From: Laspinema olomoucense D3d
GTDB taxonomy: Bacteria; Cyanobacteriota; Cyanobacteriia; Cyanobacteriales; Laspinemataceae
Strand: one strand, 5' to 3'
Assembly (NCBI RefSeq): GCF_025370715.1
Contig: NZ_JAMXEY010000002.1
DNA: 14,566 bases
The notes under the pieces were generated by a model. It searched no databases and had not been told where the DNA came from. It saw nothing but the letters and a program-made list of their open reading frames with translations. The position numbers and the translations under genes are program-made. Positions 1,986 to 14,566 of the stretch are shown one piece after another. The number at the start of each line of letters is the position of its first letter. Position 1 is the first letter of the stretch.

Positions 1986-2816
1986 ATGCAAACCTTAACA
2001 ACCTCCAGCGGCCATCCCCACAGCACCAATGACTCCTACCTCGTCATTGACGGTCTCAGTAAAACCTATGCCACCCCAGAAGGTCCCTATCCCGTTCTCG
2101 ATAACATCCAACTCACCATCCGCGAAGGAGAATTTATTTGCCTGATTGGTCACTCCGGCTGTGGCAAATCGACCCTCCTAGATATGGTGTCCGGTTTCCG
2201 TCAACCCAGTGAAGGAGTAGTGCTCCTCGAAGGACAACGGATTGAGGAACCCGGTCCCGATCGCATGGTGGTCTTCCAAAACTACGCCCTCCTCCCCTGG
2301 CTAAGCGCCTACGATAATATCTTGCTGGCCGTCAACTCCGTCTTTCCCAAACTCAAACAACGGGAGAAATCGGCGATCGTGCGAGAACATCTGGAACTCG
2401 TCGGATTGAGTGACGCTGCCGACAAAAAACCCAAAGAACTCTCCGGAGGCATGAAACAACGAGTCTCCATCGCCCGCGCCCTGGCCGTGCGCCCCAAAGT
2501 TCTCATTCTCGACGAACCCTTCGGTGCCCTCGATCCCATCACCCGGGAAGAACTCCAAGAAGAACTCTTAAGAATCTGGGCCGATCACAAAGTCACCATC
2601 CTGATGATTACCCATGATATCGACGAAGCCCTCTTCCTGGGCGATCGCCTCGTCATGATGACCAACGGCCCCGCCGCCCGCATTGGTGAAATCCTAGACT
2701 TACCCTTCCCCCGGCCCCGCGATCGCGCCCGACTCACGAAACAGGTGGAATACTACGACTTACGCAACGAAGCCCTCGACTTCCTCTATGGTCGTTACGC
2801 CCATGACGACACTTAA
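1986..2816 (+). CDS. nrtD: Nitrate/bicarbonate ABC transporter ATP-binding protein (NrtD/CmpD type)
   Basis: The translation shows Walker A GHSGCGKST, the signature LSGGMKQRVSIARAL, Walker B VLILDEPFGALD and the H-loop ITHD. The gene is 276 aa and lies 104 nt downstream of the nrtC-like gene on the same strand. No Shine-Dalgarno is visible (the upstream stretch is pyrimidine-rich), which is common in cyanobacteria. Confidence 0.85.
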   Translation: MQTLTTSSGHPHSTNDSYLVIDGLSKTYATPEGPYPVLDNIQLTIREGEFICLIGHSGCGKSTLLDMVSGFRQPSEGVVLLEGQRIEEPGPDRMVVFQNYALLPWLSAYDNILLAVNSVFPKLKQREKSAIVREHLELVGLSDAADKKPKELSGGMKQRVSIARALAVRPKVLILDEPFGALDPITREELQEELLRIWADHKVTILMITHDIDEALFLGDRLVMMTNGPAARIGEILDLPFPRPRDRARLTKQVEYYDLRNEALDFLYGRYAHDDT

Positions 2817-2911
2817 GCCATTGAGGAGTCTTTGGCCGTCTTATGAATGGGGATTTCAATCAAAAAACTGATACCCACCCCCGGTTCCCAGGTGCAGGTC
2901 AGACTGCTATA

Positions 2912-2952
2912 GGGAGGATTGAGGAGATTGTTCGTAGTAACGACTTCAGTCG
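2912..2952. repeat. Left terminal inverted repeat of the MITE-like element
   Basis: Its reverse complement is found at 3238-3278, with 3 mismatches. Confidence 0.7.
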
Positions 2953-3237
2953 TTGCTCTCTTGTGATGGCGGACGCCATGACACTTATCCCTGAGCGGAT
3001 TAAGTACCTGTTGTTTGGGGACTGGCGCGATCGCCTCTTTAAGGATCGCGTTACTTGGAGTAATACCAAATCCGGTTTTTAAAAGTCGGTTTTCTCTTCA
3101 GCCCGCCCGCGCTTCTCGGGCTACCCTTCACCGAAGCCGCTAGCGCGTCTACGTCTGTGTAGCCTCCGGGCTTGACGCTGCAGGTTTTTATAGACCTATC
3201 ACAACCGGATTCCGTATAAAGGCCAGTAAGGCGGAAA

Positions 3238-3278
3238 CGACTGAAGTCGTTACTACGAACAATCTTACCAATCCTCCC
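3238..3278. repeat. Right terminal inverted repeat of the MITE-like element
   Basis: It is the reverse complement of 2912-2952. Confidence 0.7.
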
Positions 3279-3318
3279 CATCTCCCCCATCAACTAAGGA
3301 CAAAGGACCAATGACCAA

Positions 3319-4416
3319 CTACCTAGGCGATCGCCGAGGGGGAAAAAAATCAGGAAGGTCCAATCCGGGCCAACTTTGAGGCGGTATCTCGGGTTGAGGT
3401 GTGGGGGTTGGAGGTTTGGCAACCCGATATTGAGGGGGGGGAGTCGGGACTACCCGGGTTTGAGGAAGAGAAACCTGCGGTTCATTGGAAAATCCAGTAG
3501 CGATTAAGGTCATTCTCATCTCTCCATGCAGGCGATCGTCAATCACTGCACCGAAAATAATATTCGCATCCGGATCCACTACGTTATAGACTTCTGCTGC
3601 TGCTACATTCACTTCATGTAAGGTGAGATCCATGCCGCAGGTAATATTAAAAACAACCCCTTTGGCCCCGTTAATTGAACACTCTAAAAAGGGCGAAGAC
3701 ATCGCCGAAATCGCAGCTTGTCTAGCGCGAGATTGTCCTTGACCAATTCCTATCCCCAGTAAAGCGGTTCCGGCGCGACTCATCACCGATCGCACGTCGG
3801 CAAAATCCACATTCACTACCCCGGGAATCACAATTAAATCAGAAATCCCTTGTACCCCTTGGCGCAAGATATCATCCGCCACGCCAAAGGCATCCTGAAC
3901 CGGCATATTGTCAGAAATCACGGACAACAATTTCTCATTAGGAACGGCGATCGCCGTATCCAAGCGAGTCTGTAATGCCGTAATCGCTTCCTCGGCAAGA
4001 TGACTGCGCCGTTTCCCCTCGAAGGCAAAGGGACGAGTCAAGACTCCAATCGTGAGTGCCCCTTGTTGTTTGGCAATTTCCGCGACAATGGGTGTGGCCC
4101 CTGTGCCGGTTCCGCCTCCCATCCCTGCGGTAATAAAGACTAAATCACTCCCTTCCATCGCTGCGGCAATTTGACTTCTGGCATCTTCCGCCGCTTTTTG
4201 TCCGATGAGGGGATTTCCCCCAGTTCCTAACCCCTGGGTGAGTTTCTGCCCGATTTGAATGCGGCGATCGGCACGGCATTGGGCTAAAGCTCTAGCATCG
4301 GTGTTAATCCCTACAAATTCAACCCCAGACAGATCACTGGCAATCATCCGGTTGATGGCATTGCACCCGCCACCCCCGACGCCGATCACGGTAATTTTAA
4401 TGAGACTATCGAGCAC
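3319..4416 (-). CDS. ftsZ: Cell division GTPase FtsZ, apparently GTG-initiated at 4416 with an AGGAG Shine-Dalgarno 9 nt upstream
   Basis: The translation shows the tubulin/FtsZ signature GGGTGTG ([15 protein letters not shown]), the GTP-binding N-terminus [17 protein letters not shown], a Pro-rich linker, and the conserved C-terminal peptide LDLPDFF. On the minus strand ACTCAGGAGTAACGAGATC precedes the GTG. An in-frame stop lies 6 codons upstream, so there is no long N-terminal extension. Confidence 0.95.
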
Positions 4417-4479: not shown

Positions 4480-6999
4480 TTACCTCACGATAATAACCCA
4501 CATCCCCAAAGCTAGTCCGAGGGTGGCTAAATGTTGGGGAAGCAGCGATCGCAGGGACTCTCGGCCAATTTTTTGCGTTAACAGAATGCTCAACCCCACT
4601 CCAGCAATTAAGGTGGTTCCTTGCAAAAAGGTAATCACTGCTGGATGTGCAATCCACACGGGCAACCCTTCCCCACTCAACCCAAAGGTGGCAAAGGTGA
4701 CGGGTAAAATGCGTCCCGCTTCTCCTAATCCCAAGCGCAAATAATGAGCTAAACTTCCCCCTAAAACTAAGGGCAAATATCCGTATGCTAATTGGACAAA
4801 GGGTTTAGATTTGAAGGTGCGGTTTAGTCCAACAATGGCCACCCCGGCAAGTAATACCCAGGCGGCAGGAATCCCTAATGCGGCCAATGACAATCCCAAA
4901 TGCGGCCAAAATTGGCTTAAATCAATGCCTAATCCCAGGACTGTATTAATTTCGGGCAATCGATGCAAAAATATTCCCCCTAAAAGTAACAGCAACAAGG
5001 CGACTTCATAGCTACGAGGCTGATGAGTGGTCCACAAATCAATTCCCGGAGGTCGTAGATTGAATTCAACGGACCGATGGGGACAGGCTTTTAAACAGGT
5101 CATGCATAAAACACAATCCCGGTTATCTTCTAACTGGGCGGGATGAGAATAGAGCGGACAGCCATTGGTTTCCATCCCTTCCCCTTTTTGCGGACCGCCT
5201 TTATAACATTGATAGGTGGTGCATTCGGCGGAACAGGTTCCTTGTTGTGCTCTTAATTCGGTCATGGAAAGTTTGGCAAACAGTCCATTCATGCCGCCAA
5301 TGGGACAGAGGTAGCGACACCAAAACCGCCGTTCAAAGATGGCGGAACAAATCATCGCCCCGGCAGTGATTAAGAGGAGTAACCAGGCGGAGAGATAGGC
5401 CGTATTCTGTAAATTCCAGAGTTCTTCCCACAGGAAAATTAGGGTAAATAAGCCGAACAGAAACCAGCCGCCCCATTTTTCGGCTTGCTGTCGCGGCCAG
5501 GGTTTGAGGTTATGTTTTAATAATTTTTCGGAGATTTTTTGGGTAATTTCTCCATAAATCATAAAGGGACAAACGGCACACCACAAGCGACCGACAAAGG
5601 GAAAGGCGAATAGAATTAACGGCCACCACCAGGCCCAAAAGAAGTTGAGGGCAAAGTTGCGATCGCGAGTTTGCGGACCCAGAAATAAGATGGCAACGAC
5701 TAGGGCGAAGGCAACGACGGTAAAACCATAGTTAATGCGATCGGGCCACCAAGGACTGCGAAGAAAATGGCGCAATTGGGGATAAGCATTCAGTAAATTC
5801 AAGCGGAATCGTTTTTTCTTCCCTTGGGCTGCCCAAAAAATTTCTTCCGTTAATTCTCGGGCGCAATCTGACTGGACGATCGCCCGTTCTACTAAGTTTT
5901 GCAATTCCCGAATATTGCCGGGAAAATCATAAGATTGTAGCCGACGGAGAGCTTCTGGGGTGAGTTGGGGTTTGCTCAGCGCTTTGGCGCGACAGTACAA
6001 GCTAATATAATACTCGACTTGAGCGCTAATGTCGGCTTTTCGGACTCGCAGGGGAGGAACTTTGAGGGTTTGGTCCAGATGCGGGGCGATCGCTGGAAGA
6101 TGTTTTTCTGAGATGGCTAGAATTTTGGCAGGGGTGGATTTAGGGGCTGCGGGATCATCCCCTTCTCGGGTGACGGGTCTATAAGTGGCGGTTTTGCATA
6201 GGGTGGCGACTGCCTCAACCAGTTCCTCGGGCAGTTCATCAATGTTGTTGAGAATCAGGGTCCCTTCTCCCAACCATTCGATCAGTCCTGGTTTCCCTCC
6301 CGCCCGTCCAAAGAGTTCTGCCCCCCCTTTTTGGAGAATCCCACAGTTGATTTTGACGATCGGTTGCTGACGGTGGGGGGAACCATAGTGAATCAGGGCA
6401 GCAATATTATCTTTTTCTAATCCCGGTTCCCCGAAAATATAGACCGATCGCCTATCCGACCCCGCCTCTCTAATCTGCTGTCTGAGACGTTGAGCATAGC
6501 GACTTCTGCCCACAATTCCCCGTTTTGCTTTGGTGACAAAATAAGGCCGTAAAGCATCTTGTCGTTGTTGTTCATAAGTCAGCGCACTCGACACCTCGGC
6601 AAGTTCTTGGGCGAGTTGTCGGGTCAAGGTTTGGGTGATTTCTGGGTATTGCCGGACTAATTCCCGAACTCGGTCCGCTGGGACAAACCAGAATTTAGAT
6701 TCGGTGACGGTAGAAATCGTCTGTTCTGGAGGTTGGTCTAAGAGTAATGCCCGTAAGTTAATCGTGCAACCGGGGCTCAATTCATCCGAGGAAGGCGGGG
6801 CATTTTTCAGGGAAGTTTGTAACTCTCCTTCCCGGAGGATGTAGAATCCGGTGGGGAATTTCTCCGGTTCGGCGATCGCCTGATTTGCAGGTAAAATTTG
6901 CTCCTGGAGGACTTGGGCGATCGCTGTTAATACAGGTTCCGATAAACGATTTAATGCCGTTCGTTCCTGCAACCAAGCTACTGGATTGATCTCTGCCAT
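4480..6999 (-). CDS. 839-aa multidomain membrane protein. The N-terminal region is cNMP-binding/CAP-effector-like (aa ~30-125). The central domain is of sigma-54-activator (NtrC-type AAA+) type, with degenerate ATPase and sigma-54-contact motifs (aa ~160-375). The C-terminal half is polytopic membrane, with NapH/MauN/FixG-like Cys clusters (aa ~420-839).
   Basis: The ORF is a single open reading frame with the Shine-Dalgarno AGGAAA 5 nt before the ATG at 6999. The central domain aligns block by block with the NtrC central domain: IVGRS, GEPGLEKD (in place of GESGTGKE), ELFGRAGGKPGL (in place of ELFGHEKGAFTGA), GTLILNNIDELP (in place of GTLFLDEIGEMP), PPLRVRKADI, and YDFPGNIRELQNLVERAIV (versus YDWPGNVRELENAIERAVV). 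The C-terminus has at least 6 hydrophobic helices plus the motifs CAVCP, FWCRYLCPIGG, CSAECTTYQC and CVLCMTCLKACP. Confidence 0.85.
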   Translation of the reverse strand: MAEINPVAWLQERTALNRLSEPVLTAIAQVLQEQILPANQAIAEPEKFPTGFYILREGELQTSLKNAPPSSDELSPGCTINLRALLLDQPPEQTISTVTESKFWFVPADRVRELVRQYPEITQTLTRQLAQELAEVSSALTYEQQRQDALRPYFVTKAKRGIVGRSRYAQRLRQQIREAGSDRRSVYIFGEPGLEKDNIAALIHYGSPHRQQPIVKINCGILQKGGAELFGRAGGKPGLIEWLGEGTLILNNIDELPEELVEAVATLCKTATYRPVTREGDDPAAPKSTPAKILAISEKHLPAIAPHLDQTLKVPPLRVRKADISAQVEYYISLYCRAKALSKPQLTPEALRRLQSYDFPGNIRELQNLVERAIVQSDCARELTEEIFWAAQGKKKRFRLNLLNAYPQLRHFLRSPWWPDRINYGFTVVAFALVVAILFLGPQTRDRNFALNFFWAWWWPLILFAFPFVGRLWCAVCPFMIYGEITQKISEKLLKHNLKPWPRQQAEKWGGWFLFGLFTLIFLWEELWNLQNTAYLSAWLLLLITAGAMICSAIFERRFWCRYLCPIGGMNGLFAKLSMTELRAQQGTCSAECTTYQCYKGGPQKGEGMETNGCPLYSHPAQLEDNRDCVLCMTCLKACPHRSVEFNLRPPGIDLWTTHQPRSYEVALLLLLLGGIFLHRLPEINTVLGLGIDLSQFWPHLGLSLAALGIPAAWVLLAGVAIVGLNRTFKSKPFVQLAYGYLPLVLGGSLAHYLRLGLGEAGRILPVTFATFGLSGEGLPVWIAHPAVITFLQGTTLIAGVGLSILLTQKIGRESLRSLLPQHLATLGLALGMWVIIVR

Positions 7000-9545: not shown

Positions 9546-10994
9546 ATGCAGATTTCGGTCAGTCGGTTTATTGCTATAGGTTTCTGTGGGCTGTTAGCGC
9601 TATTTACAGGCGGCTGTATTACGAAGGTTGACCCCAACCAGCCAGGAATTGATGCGGGAATTCCTGATGGTAAACCGCCCAACTCTGCACAAGCGGCATC
9701 CCCTCAAGAAATTGTGCAATCCAACGTGGTGCGATCGCTTCCCGGTGGATTAGATCAAGTCCCCATGTTTAATAGTAACAGCCCCGAATGGGTCAAAGTT
9801 GAAGGCATTTTACTCTCCACCTTTCCCCCAGAAGGCAAACAAGTCCCCGCTGCCCATCTTAACTTTGTCTTTAACGATAAATTTGAGCTATTTGCTCATC
9901 ACTTTACCCATACTCCCCCCAATTTACAAACCCTCTATATCGGGATTATAGTTAACAATCCAGGCCCGGAACCTGTTACGGTAACTGTACCGGAAGGTGC
10001 TAGTTATTTACTAGAACCCGATGCTCCCTTTCAAGAGAAACCCGCCATGAGTGATAATCCTAATGGGGAGATTTATTCAGGTCCAGGAATTCGTGCCGTT
10101 GATAACGTATTGCGGGGAATTAGACAAGGGGATTTACCAGAAACCTTAGTTATTCCCCCGGGAGAAAGTCGGATGTTGATGAATCATCCGATTCCAGTCA
10201 AAGGCTTAGAAAAACCGATTAATGGTCGTTCTACTTTTCTGCGCTTACAGAGTGATGGGCCGGTATATTTAGCATCCTTAGCACTATATGCTAAAACGGA
10301 TTCTAAGGGAACTGAACGCGCACCTAATCTTGAAGAATGGCAGCAACTTTTAACTAGGGGAAATCTAGCTTTACCCCGAGATAAAACCCCTAGTCCACCG
10401 GAACAAGTCAGCGGTCAACTGATTTATAGCCGGGTTGCAGGAGTTCAGGAAGGGTCAAAATGGCAGGCTAATTTAGTGGATGAAGGAAGTGAGTATTTAG
10501 CGCTTCCTGAACCGGAAAAAGCCGTTTCTTATGTAATTAGTACCTTACGCGCTGGGACATTAGGAACAGGTCAAATTCAAGCGGCCAAGCTGTTAGTTCG
10601 ATATCCAGATACGGCTTATGAATCCCATGCGAACTATGGGGTGCATTATGATTTAACCCTCCCCCTACGAAACGAGAGCGATCGCCCGCAAAAAGTGGCA
10701 GTTACCTTAGAAACCCCGATGAAAGAAGAACGGTTATCTAAAGGTGGATTAATCTTTCGTCAACCCCCGTGGGATTATCCCTTTTTCCGCTCAACGGTCC
10801 GCTTGCGATACACCGATGATAATGGAGAAAACATTACCCGTTATCTACATTTATGGCATCGTCGGGGACAGATTCTTGACCCATTAGTAACCTTAAATTT
10901 AGCCCCCAATGAGGTGCGATCGGTCCAGGTTGATTTCCTTTATCCTCCGGATTCCGTCCCGCCTCAAGTCTTGACAGTTAAGACGTTAGAATAA
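9546..10994 (+). CDS. Conserved hypothetical exported protein or lipoprotein of 482 aa
   Basis: The N-terminus MQISVSRFIAIGFCGLLALFTGGC is a signal peptide ending in a lipobox-like LFTGGC. The ORF is long and clean with HIP1 sites inside it. No catalytic motif was recognised. Confidence 0.75.
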   Translation: MQISVSRFIAIGFCGLLALFTGGCITKVDPNQPGIDAGIPDGKPPNSAQAASPQEIVQSNVVRSLPGGLDQVPMFNSNSPEWVKVEGILLSTFPPEGKQVPAAHLNFVFNDKFELFAHHFTHTPPNLQTLYIGIIVNNPGPEPVTVTVPEGASYLLEPDAPFQEKPAMSDNPNGEIYSGPGIRAVDNVLRGIRQGDLPETLVIPPGESRMLMNHPIPVKGLEKPINGRSTFLRLQSDGPVYLASLALYAKTDSKGTERAPNLEEWQQLLTRGNLALPRDKTPSPPEQVSGQLIYSRVAGVQEGSKWQANLVDEGSEYLALPEPEKAVSYVISTLRAGTLGTGQIQAAKLLVRYPDTAYESHANYGVHYDLTLPLRNESDRPQKVAVTLETPMKEERLSKGGLIFRQPPWDYPFFRSTVRLRYTDDNGENITRYLHLWHRRGQILDPLVTLNLAPNEVRSVQVDFLYPPDSVPPQVLTVKTLE

Positions 10995-11016: not shown

Positions 11017-11574
11017 TTAAAGTAGGGATTTGAGTGCTAAGGTAAACCCCGGGACAATATTTTCACCATTTAAGATTGCGGTTGCGGGATATGGGGTAAT
11101 GGAACCGTCAGCGCGATAAACGAACCCCTGTTGATTTTGGCGATCGATTAACCATCCCAACTGCACCCCATTTTCAATATATTCTTGCATTTTATCCTTA
11201 AGTTTTTCTAGCCCGTCAGTTTTGGAGCGAATTTCTATGACAAAATCGGGAGGGAGATTTAAAAATTCATCGGTTCCCTGATCCCATCCTTCGGGTAAAC
11301 GTCCTTTTGCCACAAACGCAGCATCAGGCGATCGCACTGCACCATTGGCTAATTTAAACCCACAACTTGAACTAAAGACTTCCCCCAAATCGTGCTGTTC
11401 TACCCAATACAAAAGATAGGCCCCTGCTTTCAGTTCTCGATTACTAGAAATTCCTCCAGTGGGTGGCATAGTCTCTAACGTTCCATCTGCATTCCGCTCA
11501 AATCTCAATTCAGGGTTTTGTGAACTGATTTGCATCAGTTCTTCATCGGTTAAGGTATAAAACTTTTGGACCAT
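11017..11574 (-). CDS. Uma2-family (DUF820) PD-(D/E)xK putative endonuclease. The start is probably the ATG at 11574 (MVQKFYTLTDEEL) with a GAGGT Shine-Dalgarno 8 nt upstream; the track ORF starts at 11598.
   Basis: The protein is ~185 aa with the characteristic Uma2 organisation. PDFVIEIRS carries the PD...E.K-like core and a C-terminal GF motif is present. The family is highly expanded in cyanobacteria. Confidence 0.8.
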   Translation of the reverse strand: MVQKFYTLTDEELMQISSQNPELRFERNADGTLETMPPTGGISSNRELKAGAYLLYWVEQHDLGEVFSSSCGFKLANGAVRSPDAAFVAKGRLPEGWDQGTDEFLNLPPDFVIEIRSKTDGLEKLKDKMQEYIENGVQLGWLIDRQNQQGFVYRADGSITPYPATAILNGENIVPGFTLALKSLL

Positions 11575-11696
11575 TATTTTACCTCGAAACACTCCCATTC
11601 AATGGGATATTCTTTAATTTAATATAACAATTTTTACCCCCTATTTTACTGCGGTATGGAAGAAACGACGGCAGTTGTGACTATGAGCAATAAAAA

Positions 11697-14442: not shown

Positions 14443-14483
14443 AGAGTTCCGGGTTCCATTATCAATTGACAATGGCTCTTTAT

Positions 14484-14566
14484 CACTTGTCACTTGTCAC
14501 TTGTCACTTGTCACTTGTCACTTGTCACTTGTCACTTGTCACTTGTCACTTGTCACTTGTCACTTG
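14484..14566. repeat. STRR-type heptanucleotide tandem array (CACTTGT)n, ~12 perfect copies, running off the window edge
   Basis: Perfect 7-nt periodicity from 14484 to the end of the window. Short tandemly repeated repetitive (STRR) heptamers are a known feature of filamentous cyanobacterial genomes. Confidence 0.9.

Follow-up and report, generated by a model that had tools for sequence, protein, structure and literature searches.

The region described here belongs to Laspinema olomoucense D3d and was analysed within a stretch of 14,566 nucleotides, which is referred to as the window. The genes nrtD (positions 1986–2816, plus strand; TIGR01184, 397 bits) and ftsZ (3319–4416, minus strand; TIGR00065, 407 bits) converge in this window, and a repeat feature lies between their 3′ ends. 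A first-pass annotation had described the feature as a non-coding element of 367 bp between nrtD and ftsZ, with 41-bp inverted arms that each carry a mini-palindrome, and had read it as either a MITE or a structured non-coding RNA. The descriptive part of this account was borne out. A repeat search of the window returned an inverted pair of 46-nt arms (2909–2954 and 3236–3281), 91% complementary and separated by 281 nt, within which the 41-bp arms (2912–2952 and 3238–3278) fall; all other inverted repeats of at least 20 nt in the 14.5-kb window were at most 71% complementary. The 29-nt arm core GATTGTTCGTAGTAACGACTTCAGTCGTT occurred exactly twice, once on each strand, with 0.00 occurrences expected from shuffled sequences (n = 200), and the mini-palindrome AACGACT-TC/GA-AGTCGTT was present in both arms. 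The convergent placement agrees with the two gene family matches, and the two open reading frames tested that overlap the feature (2843–3082, plus strand; 3051–3293, minus strand) had no NCBIfam family match, in keeping with the non-coding claim. An identical copy of the window locus was found in two other L. olomoucense strains (L120 and L121), and the NrtD encoded in the window matches the L. olomoucense protein at 100% identity.

Two observations concern other parts of the window. A weak 30-nt inverted repeat (10893–10922 and 11329–11358) is 70% complementary, contains a HIP1-like CGATCG, and covers the end of the reading frame at 9546–10994 and part of that at 11017–11598. Positions 4480–6999 (minus strand) encode an 839-aa protein with cNMP-binding, sigma-54-activator-type AAA+ and NapH-like 4Fe-4S ferredoxin membrane domains, which is kept beside ftsZ in Laspinema and has an architecture unusual for the phylum. 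To our knowledge, the host phylum is not known to use sigma-54.

The inner part of each arm is a short hairpin unit. The left unit (2930–2954, plus strand) reads GTTC-GTAG-T-AACGACT-TC-AGTCGTT and thus comprises a GTAG tag, a 7-bp stem and a 2-nt loop; as a single-stranded DNA hairpin it folds at −5.9 kcal/mol (z = −3.3). The right unit (3236–3260) has the minus-strand sequence GTTCGTAGTAACGACTTCAGTCGTT, and the GTAG tags of the pair thus face outwards; GTTCGTAGTAACGACTTCAGTCGTT is contained in both arms, and the right unit occupies the same place in the sister loci L124 (L. palackyanum D2a) and L125 (assembly JAMXFE, annotated as Laspinema sp. D1). In both arms the GTAG tag is invariant, unpaired and directly beside the short palindrome, as in a GTAG-tagged REP. 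Across loci, GTAGT and the stem apex ACT-tY-AGT are constant and the rest of the stem covaries (GCGACT/AGTCGC, AACCACT/AGTGGTT and GAGGACT/AGTCCTC). With its constant GTAGT and covarying stems, the arm unit fits the definition of GTAG-tagged REPs given by Di Nocera et al. 2013 (PMC3733652), a paper that covers their dimers, tandem clusters and association with RAYT genes, Cyanobacteria and Chloroflexi included.

The REP unit is dispersed well beyond this locus. The pattern GTAGTAACGACTNNAGTCGTT was found in at least 119 genome stretches in a scan of 185,579 species genomes; among the matches listed, about one quarter belonged to Oscillatoriales cyanobacteria and the remainder mostly to Anaerolineae/Chloroflexota. 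The Oscillatoriales among these listed matches included Laspinema palackyanum D2a, L. olomoucense D3b, an uncultured Laspinema, Oscillatoria sp. HE19RPO, Phormidium pseudopriestleyi and several MAGs. A GTAG-tagged REP is expected to be small (20–40 bp) and to have many, mostly extragenic, copies per genome, and close relatives agree with this: exact units numbered 42 in the loci fetched from Oscillatoria sp. HE19RPO (70 kb in all) and eight in those from L. palackyanum D2a. The fetched loci of L. olomoucense D3b gave two; for the host species, the window and the fetched loci together hold two units in the window and two in L082. The units occur as singletons, as head-to-tail arrays with a period of 31–36 bp (the longest, in L023, has 11 consecutive units) and as inverted doublets with covarying stems. 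The 31–36-bp arrays were considered as CRISPR and rejected, given that the period is too short, unique spacers are lacking and the repeated unit is the REP itself. A blastn search of PLSDB plasmids with the element gave no match.

Between the two REPs lies the body of a larger family unit. The canonical unit is about 172 bp long and consists of a REP on the plus strand, hairpin B (GTGTCATGGC-nnnn-GCCATGACAC), a core of about 60 nt that contains TTTGGGGACTGG and, in most copies, the HIP1 palindrome GCGATCGC, hairpin C (CGTTACTTGGC-nnnn-GCCAAGTAACG) and a REP on the minus strand. In the window, hairpin B is found at 2961–2984 as TTGTGATGGC-GGAC-GCCATGACAC and is kept in all eight copies of the family alignment, where two of its pairs have changed in a compensatory manner (GC to CG; UA/CG/GC). 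The core (2985–3046) holds TTTGGGGACTGG, carries HIP1 GCGATCGC at 3027–3034, and aligns with L086, the two copies of L015, L104, L124 and L125. Hairpin C is split here: its left half, CGCGTTACTTGGAG, is at 3047–3060, and its right half, AGGCCAGTAAGGCG, lies with a 2-nt linker at 3220–3235. In L124 and L125 hairpin C is intact as CGCGTTACTTGGC-loop-GCCAAGTAACGCG, and two of its pairs show compensatory changes.

The spread of this unit among the fetched loci was followed with an nhmmer profile built from five copies. The full-length copies all came from L. palackyanum D2a: L015 has two in tandem, and L104 and L086 have one each. The copy in the window is interrupted, those in L124 and L125 are without the left REP, and L021, L028 and L065 have partial copies; shorter combinations, such as a REP with one hairpin, were many. 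By blastn, the 367 bp matched other loci piecewise, with 2909–3056, 3061–3106 and 3149–3262 matching different places; the first of these segments is 84% identical to L086 in a local alignment. In the eight-copy alignment, 87.9% of the cells were in standard pairs, against 23–49% in slid controls, and compensatory changes were seen at four pairs, all in hairpins B and C; the eight copies are a small and partly related sample. Such covariation would be compatible with selection at the DNA level or the RNA level alike and cannot separate the two. The family copies are only about 80–84% identical and the window copy is common to the sister species, so that nothing points to recent activity.

The outer 21 nt of the arms (2909–2929 and 3261–3281) lie outside the 172-bp unit and consist of degenerate GGGGAGAT-type octamers in mirror orientation. 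The left part (2909–2929) is built of degenerate GGGAGGAT/GAGGAGAT octamer units, and its mirror on the right extends over 3261–3291 as the octamer-like units AATCTTACC-AATCCTCCCC-ATCTCCCCC-ATC; the right array is longer in L124 and L125. Other copies have longer flanks, (GGGGAGAT/GGGGAGGAT)n on the left and (ATCTCCCC)n on the right (L104, L086, L021, L023 and L061), and in some loci heptamers of the TTGGTCA type replace the GGGGAGAT-type octamers around the REPs. In L082 (7200–7400) and L119 (7030–7230), REP clusters are enclosed by TTGGTCA-type heptamer arrays that mirror each other, CATTGGT... to the left and ...ACCAATG/AAATGAC to the right, and this places the REPs at the centre of long palindromes.

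Cyanobacterial short tandemly repeated repetitive (STRR) heptamers, and very small dispersed repeats that lie one inside another, were reportedly described by Mazel et al. in 1990 and Elhai et al. in 2008. The heptamer and octamer arrays that flank the REPs here (GGGGAGAT and TTGGTCA types) resemble STRR, and a MITE within a hairpin loop, together with another MITE copy within a REP (both described below), resembles the nested small dispersed repeats; those families were defined in Nostocales, and the likeness is one of kind, not of sequence comparison. Two other STRR-like arrays were observed in the window, namely a perfect 12-copy TCACTTG heptamer array at its end (14483–14566), which may extend beyond the window, and a 7-copy TTGCCTT array between nrtC and nrtD (1923–1974).

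The interruption of hairpin C is a mobile element in its own right. [quoted passage not shown] Related copies of about 125 bp were found in Oscillatoria sp. HE19RPO loci, namely L066, L021, L084 (two copies), L028 and L055. Counting the one in the window, seven copies are bordered by TNA duplications; those of the related copies are TTA in L066, TCA in L021, TGA at both copies in L084, TAA in L028 and TGA in L055. The L066 copy is inserted within a REP unit (GTCG|TTA|CTAC), and the window copy has about 33–40 more internal bases than most others. The element has terminal repeats and a target-site duplication, exists in multiple copies, and is present or absent at the same site in sister species; 3064–3216 is a classical MITE. 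Among the fetched loci, which sample the genomes in part, no long element bearing the MITE ends was seen as a parent IS.

Some IS5-family groups, like Harbinger/Tourist elements, typically duplicate a 3-bp TNA target. By the type of its target duplication alone, we take the inner element, and only the inner element, to be of IS5/Harbinger type. It shares with IS5-derived Tourist/Harbinger-like MITEs the short terminal repeats, the 3-bp TNA duplication, a length of about 125–153 bp and the many copies. The evidence for it is also of the same kind as that for Nezha, a cyanobacterial MITE (PMC3184786), such as filled versus empty sites in sister species; this likeness of 3064–3216 to Nezha is by features, not by sequence comparison.

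The whole feature could also be regarded as one MITE of 367 bp, with terminal inverted repeats of 41–46 bp and mobilised by a DDE transposase in trans. The long terminal inverted repeat, the non-coding and intergenic nature of the feature, and the related sequences in related genomes all speak for such an element. However, no target-site duplication was found immediately outside 2909/3281 or 2930/3260, and the copies in L015, L104 and L086 likewise have none at their ends. No full 367-bp copy was seen in the fetched loci outside the identical L. olomoucense strains, the matches being modular, and no IS with ends matching the arms was seen. The arms are built on REP units, which are also found singly or in tandem, and the sister species has the right arm and the core without the left arm or the centre. 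The single-MITE explanation is largely refuted by these results, and we regard it as highly improbable. Of the mobile-element reading in the first-pass annotation, what stands is that the sequence belongs to dispersed repeat families derived from mobile elements and holds a genuine MITE at 3064–3216; what falls is that the whole 367 bp forms one MITE.

Comparison with the sister loci shows how the spacer has changed. The nrtD-ftsZ synteny is kept in both L124 and L125, and the spacer is 191 bp there versus 502 bp in the window. Both retain the right arm and the core and are without the left arm and the central 153 bp; the window has about 156 extra bases where L124 and L125 have an intact hairpin C. 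Moreover, both are without 141 bp corresponding to window positions 2814–2954, which take in the stop codon of nrtD, the roughly 90 nt of 3′ flank behind it and the left arm. This 141-bp deletion fuses nrtD to the repeat element, so that NrtD reads into the element and reaches 279 aa (...HDDTALV; L124 at 3826–3840, and L125), versus 276 aa (...HDDT, then the stop) in the window. The direction of the change can be read from relatives. The approximately 90 nt after the nrtD stop (window 2817–2905), absent in L124 and L125, are kept in Laspinema sp. A4 and three metagenomic relatives (L122, L123, L126 and L127), in which the 276-aa end of NrtD is also kept and the downstream genes differ. Since the flank and the 276-aa end are conserved in these relatives, it is the sister species that suffered a deletion, and the window keeps the ancestral, complete unit. 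Positions 2817–2905, which had no Rfam match, may be a conserved nrtD 3′-UTR element.

The position of the feature also raises the explanation of a locus-specific structured RNA, that is, a long-stem non-coding RNA or a bidirectional terminator or 3′-UTR stabiliser for nrtD and ftsZ. The fold is very stable (−165 kcal/mol, z = −8.9 against shuffles on the plus strand; −169 kcal/mol, z = −10.0 on the minus strand), the feature lies at the 3′ ends of two convergent genes, hairpin pairing is kept across copies, and REPs downstream of genes are reported to act as RNA elements (PMC3733652). Against this explanation, the window gave no match to Rfam 15 at gathering thresholds, and at E values up to 10 over 2700–3500 the one match was a spurious snoRNA outside the element. 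No U-tract follows the REP or outer stems. The one weak terminator-like site found (3072–3089, plus strand) is inside the MITE and none is at the REPs or outer stems; the count of one compares with 1.2 expected, and promoter-like and terminator-like sites in general were at chance frequency. L. palackyanum is missing one arm and with it the long outer stem, which therefore cannot be essential, and the same modules occur at many unrelated loci. A dedicated RNA at this locus is therefore unlikely, and the structured-RNA half of the first-pass reading was not upheld: the unit has no Rfam counterpart, is not kept whole between sister species, and shares its modules with unrelated loci.

The GTAG-tagged REP reading leads to a possible mobilising enzyme, the RAYT (REP-associated tyrosine transposase). 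With an approximate E. coli YafM sequence serving purely as bait, tblastn on the fetched loci gave RAYT-like genes about 200 bp or less from the motif in L112, L017, L116 and L101; a query with the L112 protein added L018. An approximate IS200 TnpA seed had no match in the fetched loci. Against NCBIfam NF047646 ('REP-associated tyrosine transposase', cutoff 80 bits), the L017 and L116 proteins scored 87.1 and 91.0 bits and the L112 protein 78.6 bits, and the best solved-structure match of all three was E. coli TnpA-REP (4ER8, E = 3e-8). Pfam returned nothing for the RAYT candidates at the default threshold, and Y1_Tnp only as a sub-threshold match (E up to 10); it was the NCBIfam and solved-structure results that decided what these proteins are. 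Units of the GTAGT-hairpin family cluster on both sides of the RAYT genes in L112, L017, L116, L101 and L018, and likewise around two further cyanobacterial RAYT homologues, L128 and L129. Six of these seven loci have the exact AACGACT-stem unit, and L128 has stem variants only. L112 (Oculatellaceae), L128 and L129 are cyanobacterial, and L017, L116, L101 and L018 belong to Anaerolineae/Chloroflexota.

Several side observations were made on these RAYT loci. In three of the seven, the RAYT gene adjoins type III restriction-modification genes (L112 356–3480, L128 1–3708 and L116 244–4068); the gene orders are Mtase-RAYT, Mtase-RAYT-XisH-XisI-ResIII and ResIII-RAYT, and both cyanobacterial and Anaerolineae genomes are represented. 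Within the DNA methyltransferase reading frame of L112 (356–2509), positions 2090–2200 hold in-frame REPs that are translated as ...VTTNKARSEDF(R/S)PQ... repeats, an example of intragenic REPs. Anaerolineae RAYTs (P0177 and P0212), 57–62% identical to the L112 RAYT, interleave with cyanobacterial RAYTs among the matches listed, and an identical 21-nt REP occurs in both Cyanobacteria and Anaerolineae. The interleaving and the shared REP together suggest either an exchange between the phyla or MAG bins with contaminating sequence.

The RAYT family is widespread in cyanobacteria, with 1139 homologues at E < 1e-10, several of which are named REP-associated tyrosine transposase by NCBI. None of the best 120 of these 1139 homologues was named as a Laspinema protein, and no RAYT was found in about 40 fetched Laspinema- and Oscillatoria-type loci, which cover a few percent of each genome. 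The proteins P0134 and P0123 were considered as Laspinema RAYTs and rejected, being from other assemblies.

These results bear on a further explanation, in which the repeats form a cluster that arose without a transposase. Hairpin-prone units and heptamer arrays would grow and invert by slippage, template switching and gene conversion, and a RAYT would play no role in Laspinema. The tandem arrays with a 31–36-bp period, the mirrored heptamer arrays around REPs, and the lack of a RAYT in the sampled Laspinema or Oscillatoria loci agree with such a process; the last is weak evidence, because only a few percent of each genome was sampled. Slippage, however, leaves unexplained how 25-nt and 172-bp units were dispersed to many unlinked loci and genomes, and also the consistent placement of the REP unit around RAYT genes in two phyla. 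We therefore hold this explanation to be very unlikely for the feature as a whole, although growth of tandem REP arrays by slippage rather than transposition could occur and counts against the RAYT-based account.

Taken together, the feature is probably a set of layered selfish non-coding repeats, in which a family unit of GTAG-REP doublet type, likely spread by a RAYT, was followed by a later MITE, rather than one element. Points against this account are the failure to find a RAYT in the Laspinema loci sampled, the wide spacing of the REPs, the modest identity of the family copies, the few and partly related copies behind the covariation, and the lack of a parent IS among the fetched loci. 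The outer layer is an inverted doublet of GTAG-tagged REPs, tags outside, that bounds a unit of about 172 bp within mirrored short-repeat arrays. The REP units were most likely made and spread as single-stranded DNA by a RAYT of the HUH/Y1 type, a step that for the host genome we infer. Such an enzyme would recognise the hairpin and cut at the GTAG tag of single-stranded GTAGTAACGACTTCAGTCGTT, and cutting there would explain why the outer ends are without a target-site duplication. After the split from L. palackyanum, the second and unrelated element, the 153-bp MITE, entered the loop of hairpin C with duplication of a TNA triplet, in the manner of IS5/Harbinger-type DDE transposases; its insertion accounts for the increase in the distance between the two inverted REPs from about 122 bp in the canonical unit to 281 bp in the window. 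In L. palackyanum, the 141-bp deletion took away the stop codon of nrtD, the conserved sequence behind it and the left REP.

Several likenesses and differences place the doublet among known systems. As in GTAG REP/REPIN systems, a tag stands beside a short palindrome in a unit of 21–25 nt that is extragenic and often downstream of genes, and the arrangements here, as singletons, inverted dimers, tandem clusters and clusters inside longer palindromes, are those given for GTAG REPs in PMC3733652. As in the REP-RAYT systems of E. coli (REP/BIME with TnpA-REP) and Pseudomonas (REPINs), RAYT genes are flanked by the same units, in this case in other genomes. The REPs of most dimers in PMC3733652 are 20–100 bp apart, whereas the spacing here is 122 bp in canonical form and 281 bp with the MITE. 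Unlike known REP doublets, the present unit carries a conserved cargo, namely two more hairpins and a core with HIP1. The AACGACT-TY-AGTCGTT stem family was not found named in the available text of the paper on the cyanobacterial GTAG-12, -15 and -16 families (PMC3733652).

A more ambitious version of the RAYT-based account is that the unit of about 172 bp is a long-spacer REPIN whose cargo is the two covarying hairpins and the HIP1-containing core, a single replicator mobilised by a RAYT, and that the REP-RAYT system, which adjoins type III restriction-modification genes in three of the seven RAYT loci, is shared by filamentous Cyanobacteria and Anaerolineae. We consider this version speculative and rather doubtful. 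If true, it would imply transfer of REP-RAYT systems between phyla; published abstracts regard these systems as almost strictly vertically inherited.

Returning to the layered REP doublet and MITE, selfish repeat DNA is the best-supported account of what the feature does. Any present-day function would be secondary: where nrtD and ftsZ transcripts end, stable hairpins in the convergent 3′ regions could either stabilise these mRNAs or limit them, and such a side effect is plausible by analogy with REPs elsewhere (PMC3733652).

The layered account requires no new mechanism, and it accounts for both the conspicuous 46-nt inverted repeat and the spurious open reading frames in the nrtD-ftsZ spacer. 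It also traces the stepwise remodelling of a cyanobacterial spacer by repeats, with a REP doublet and then a MITE, and with a deletion that rewrites the NrtD C-terminus of the sister species. Our analysis documents a GTAG-REP family together with candidate RAYTs in Laspinema- and Oscillatoria-type cyanobacteria, and this family could serve for strain typing or for studies of REP-RAYT biology outside Proteobacteria.
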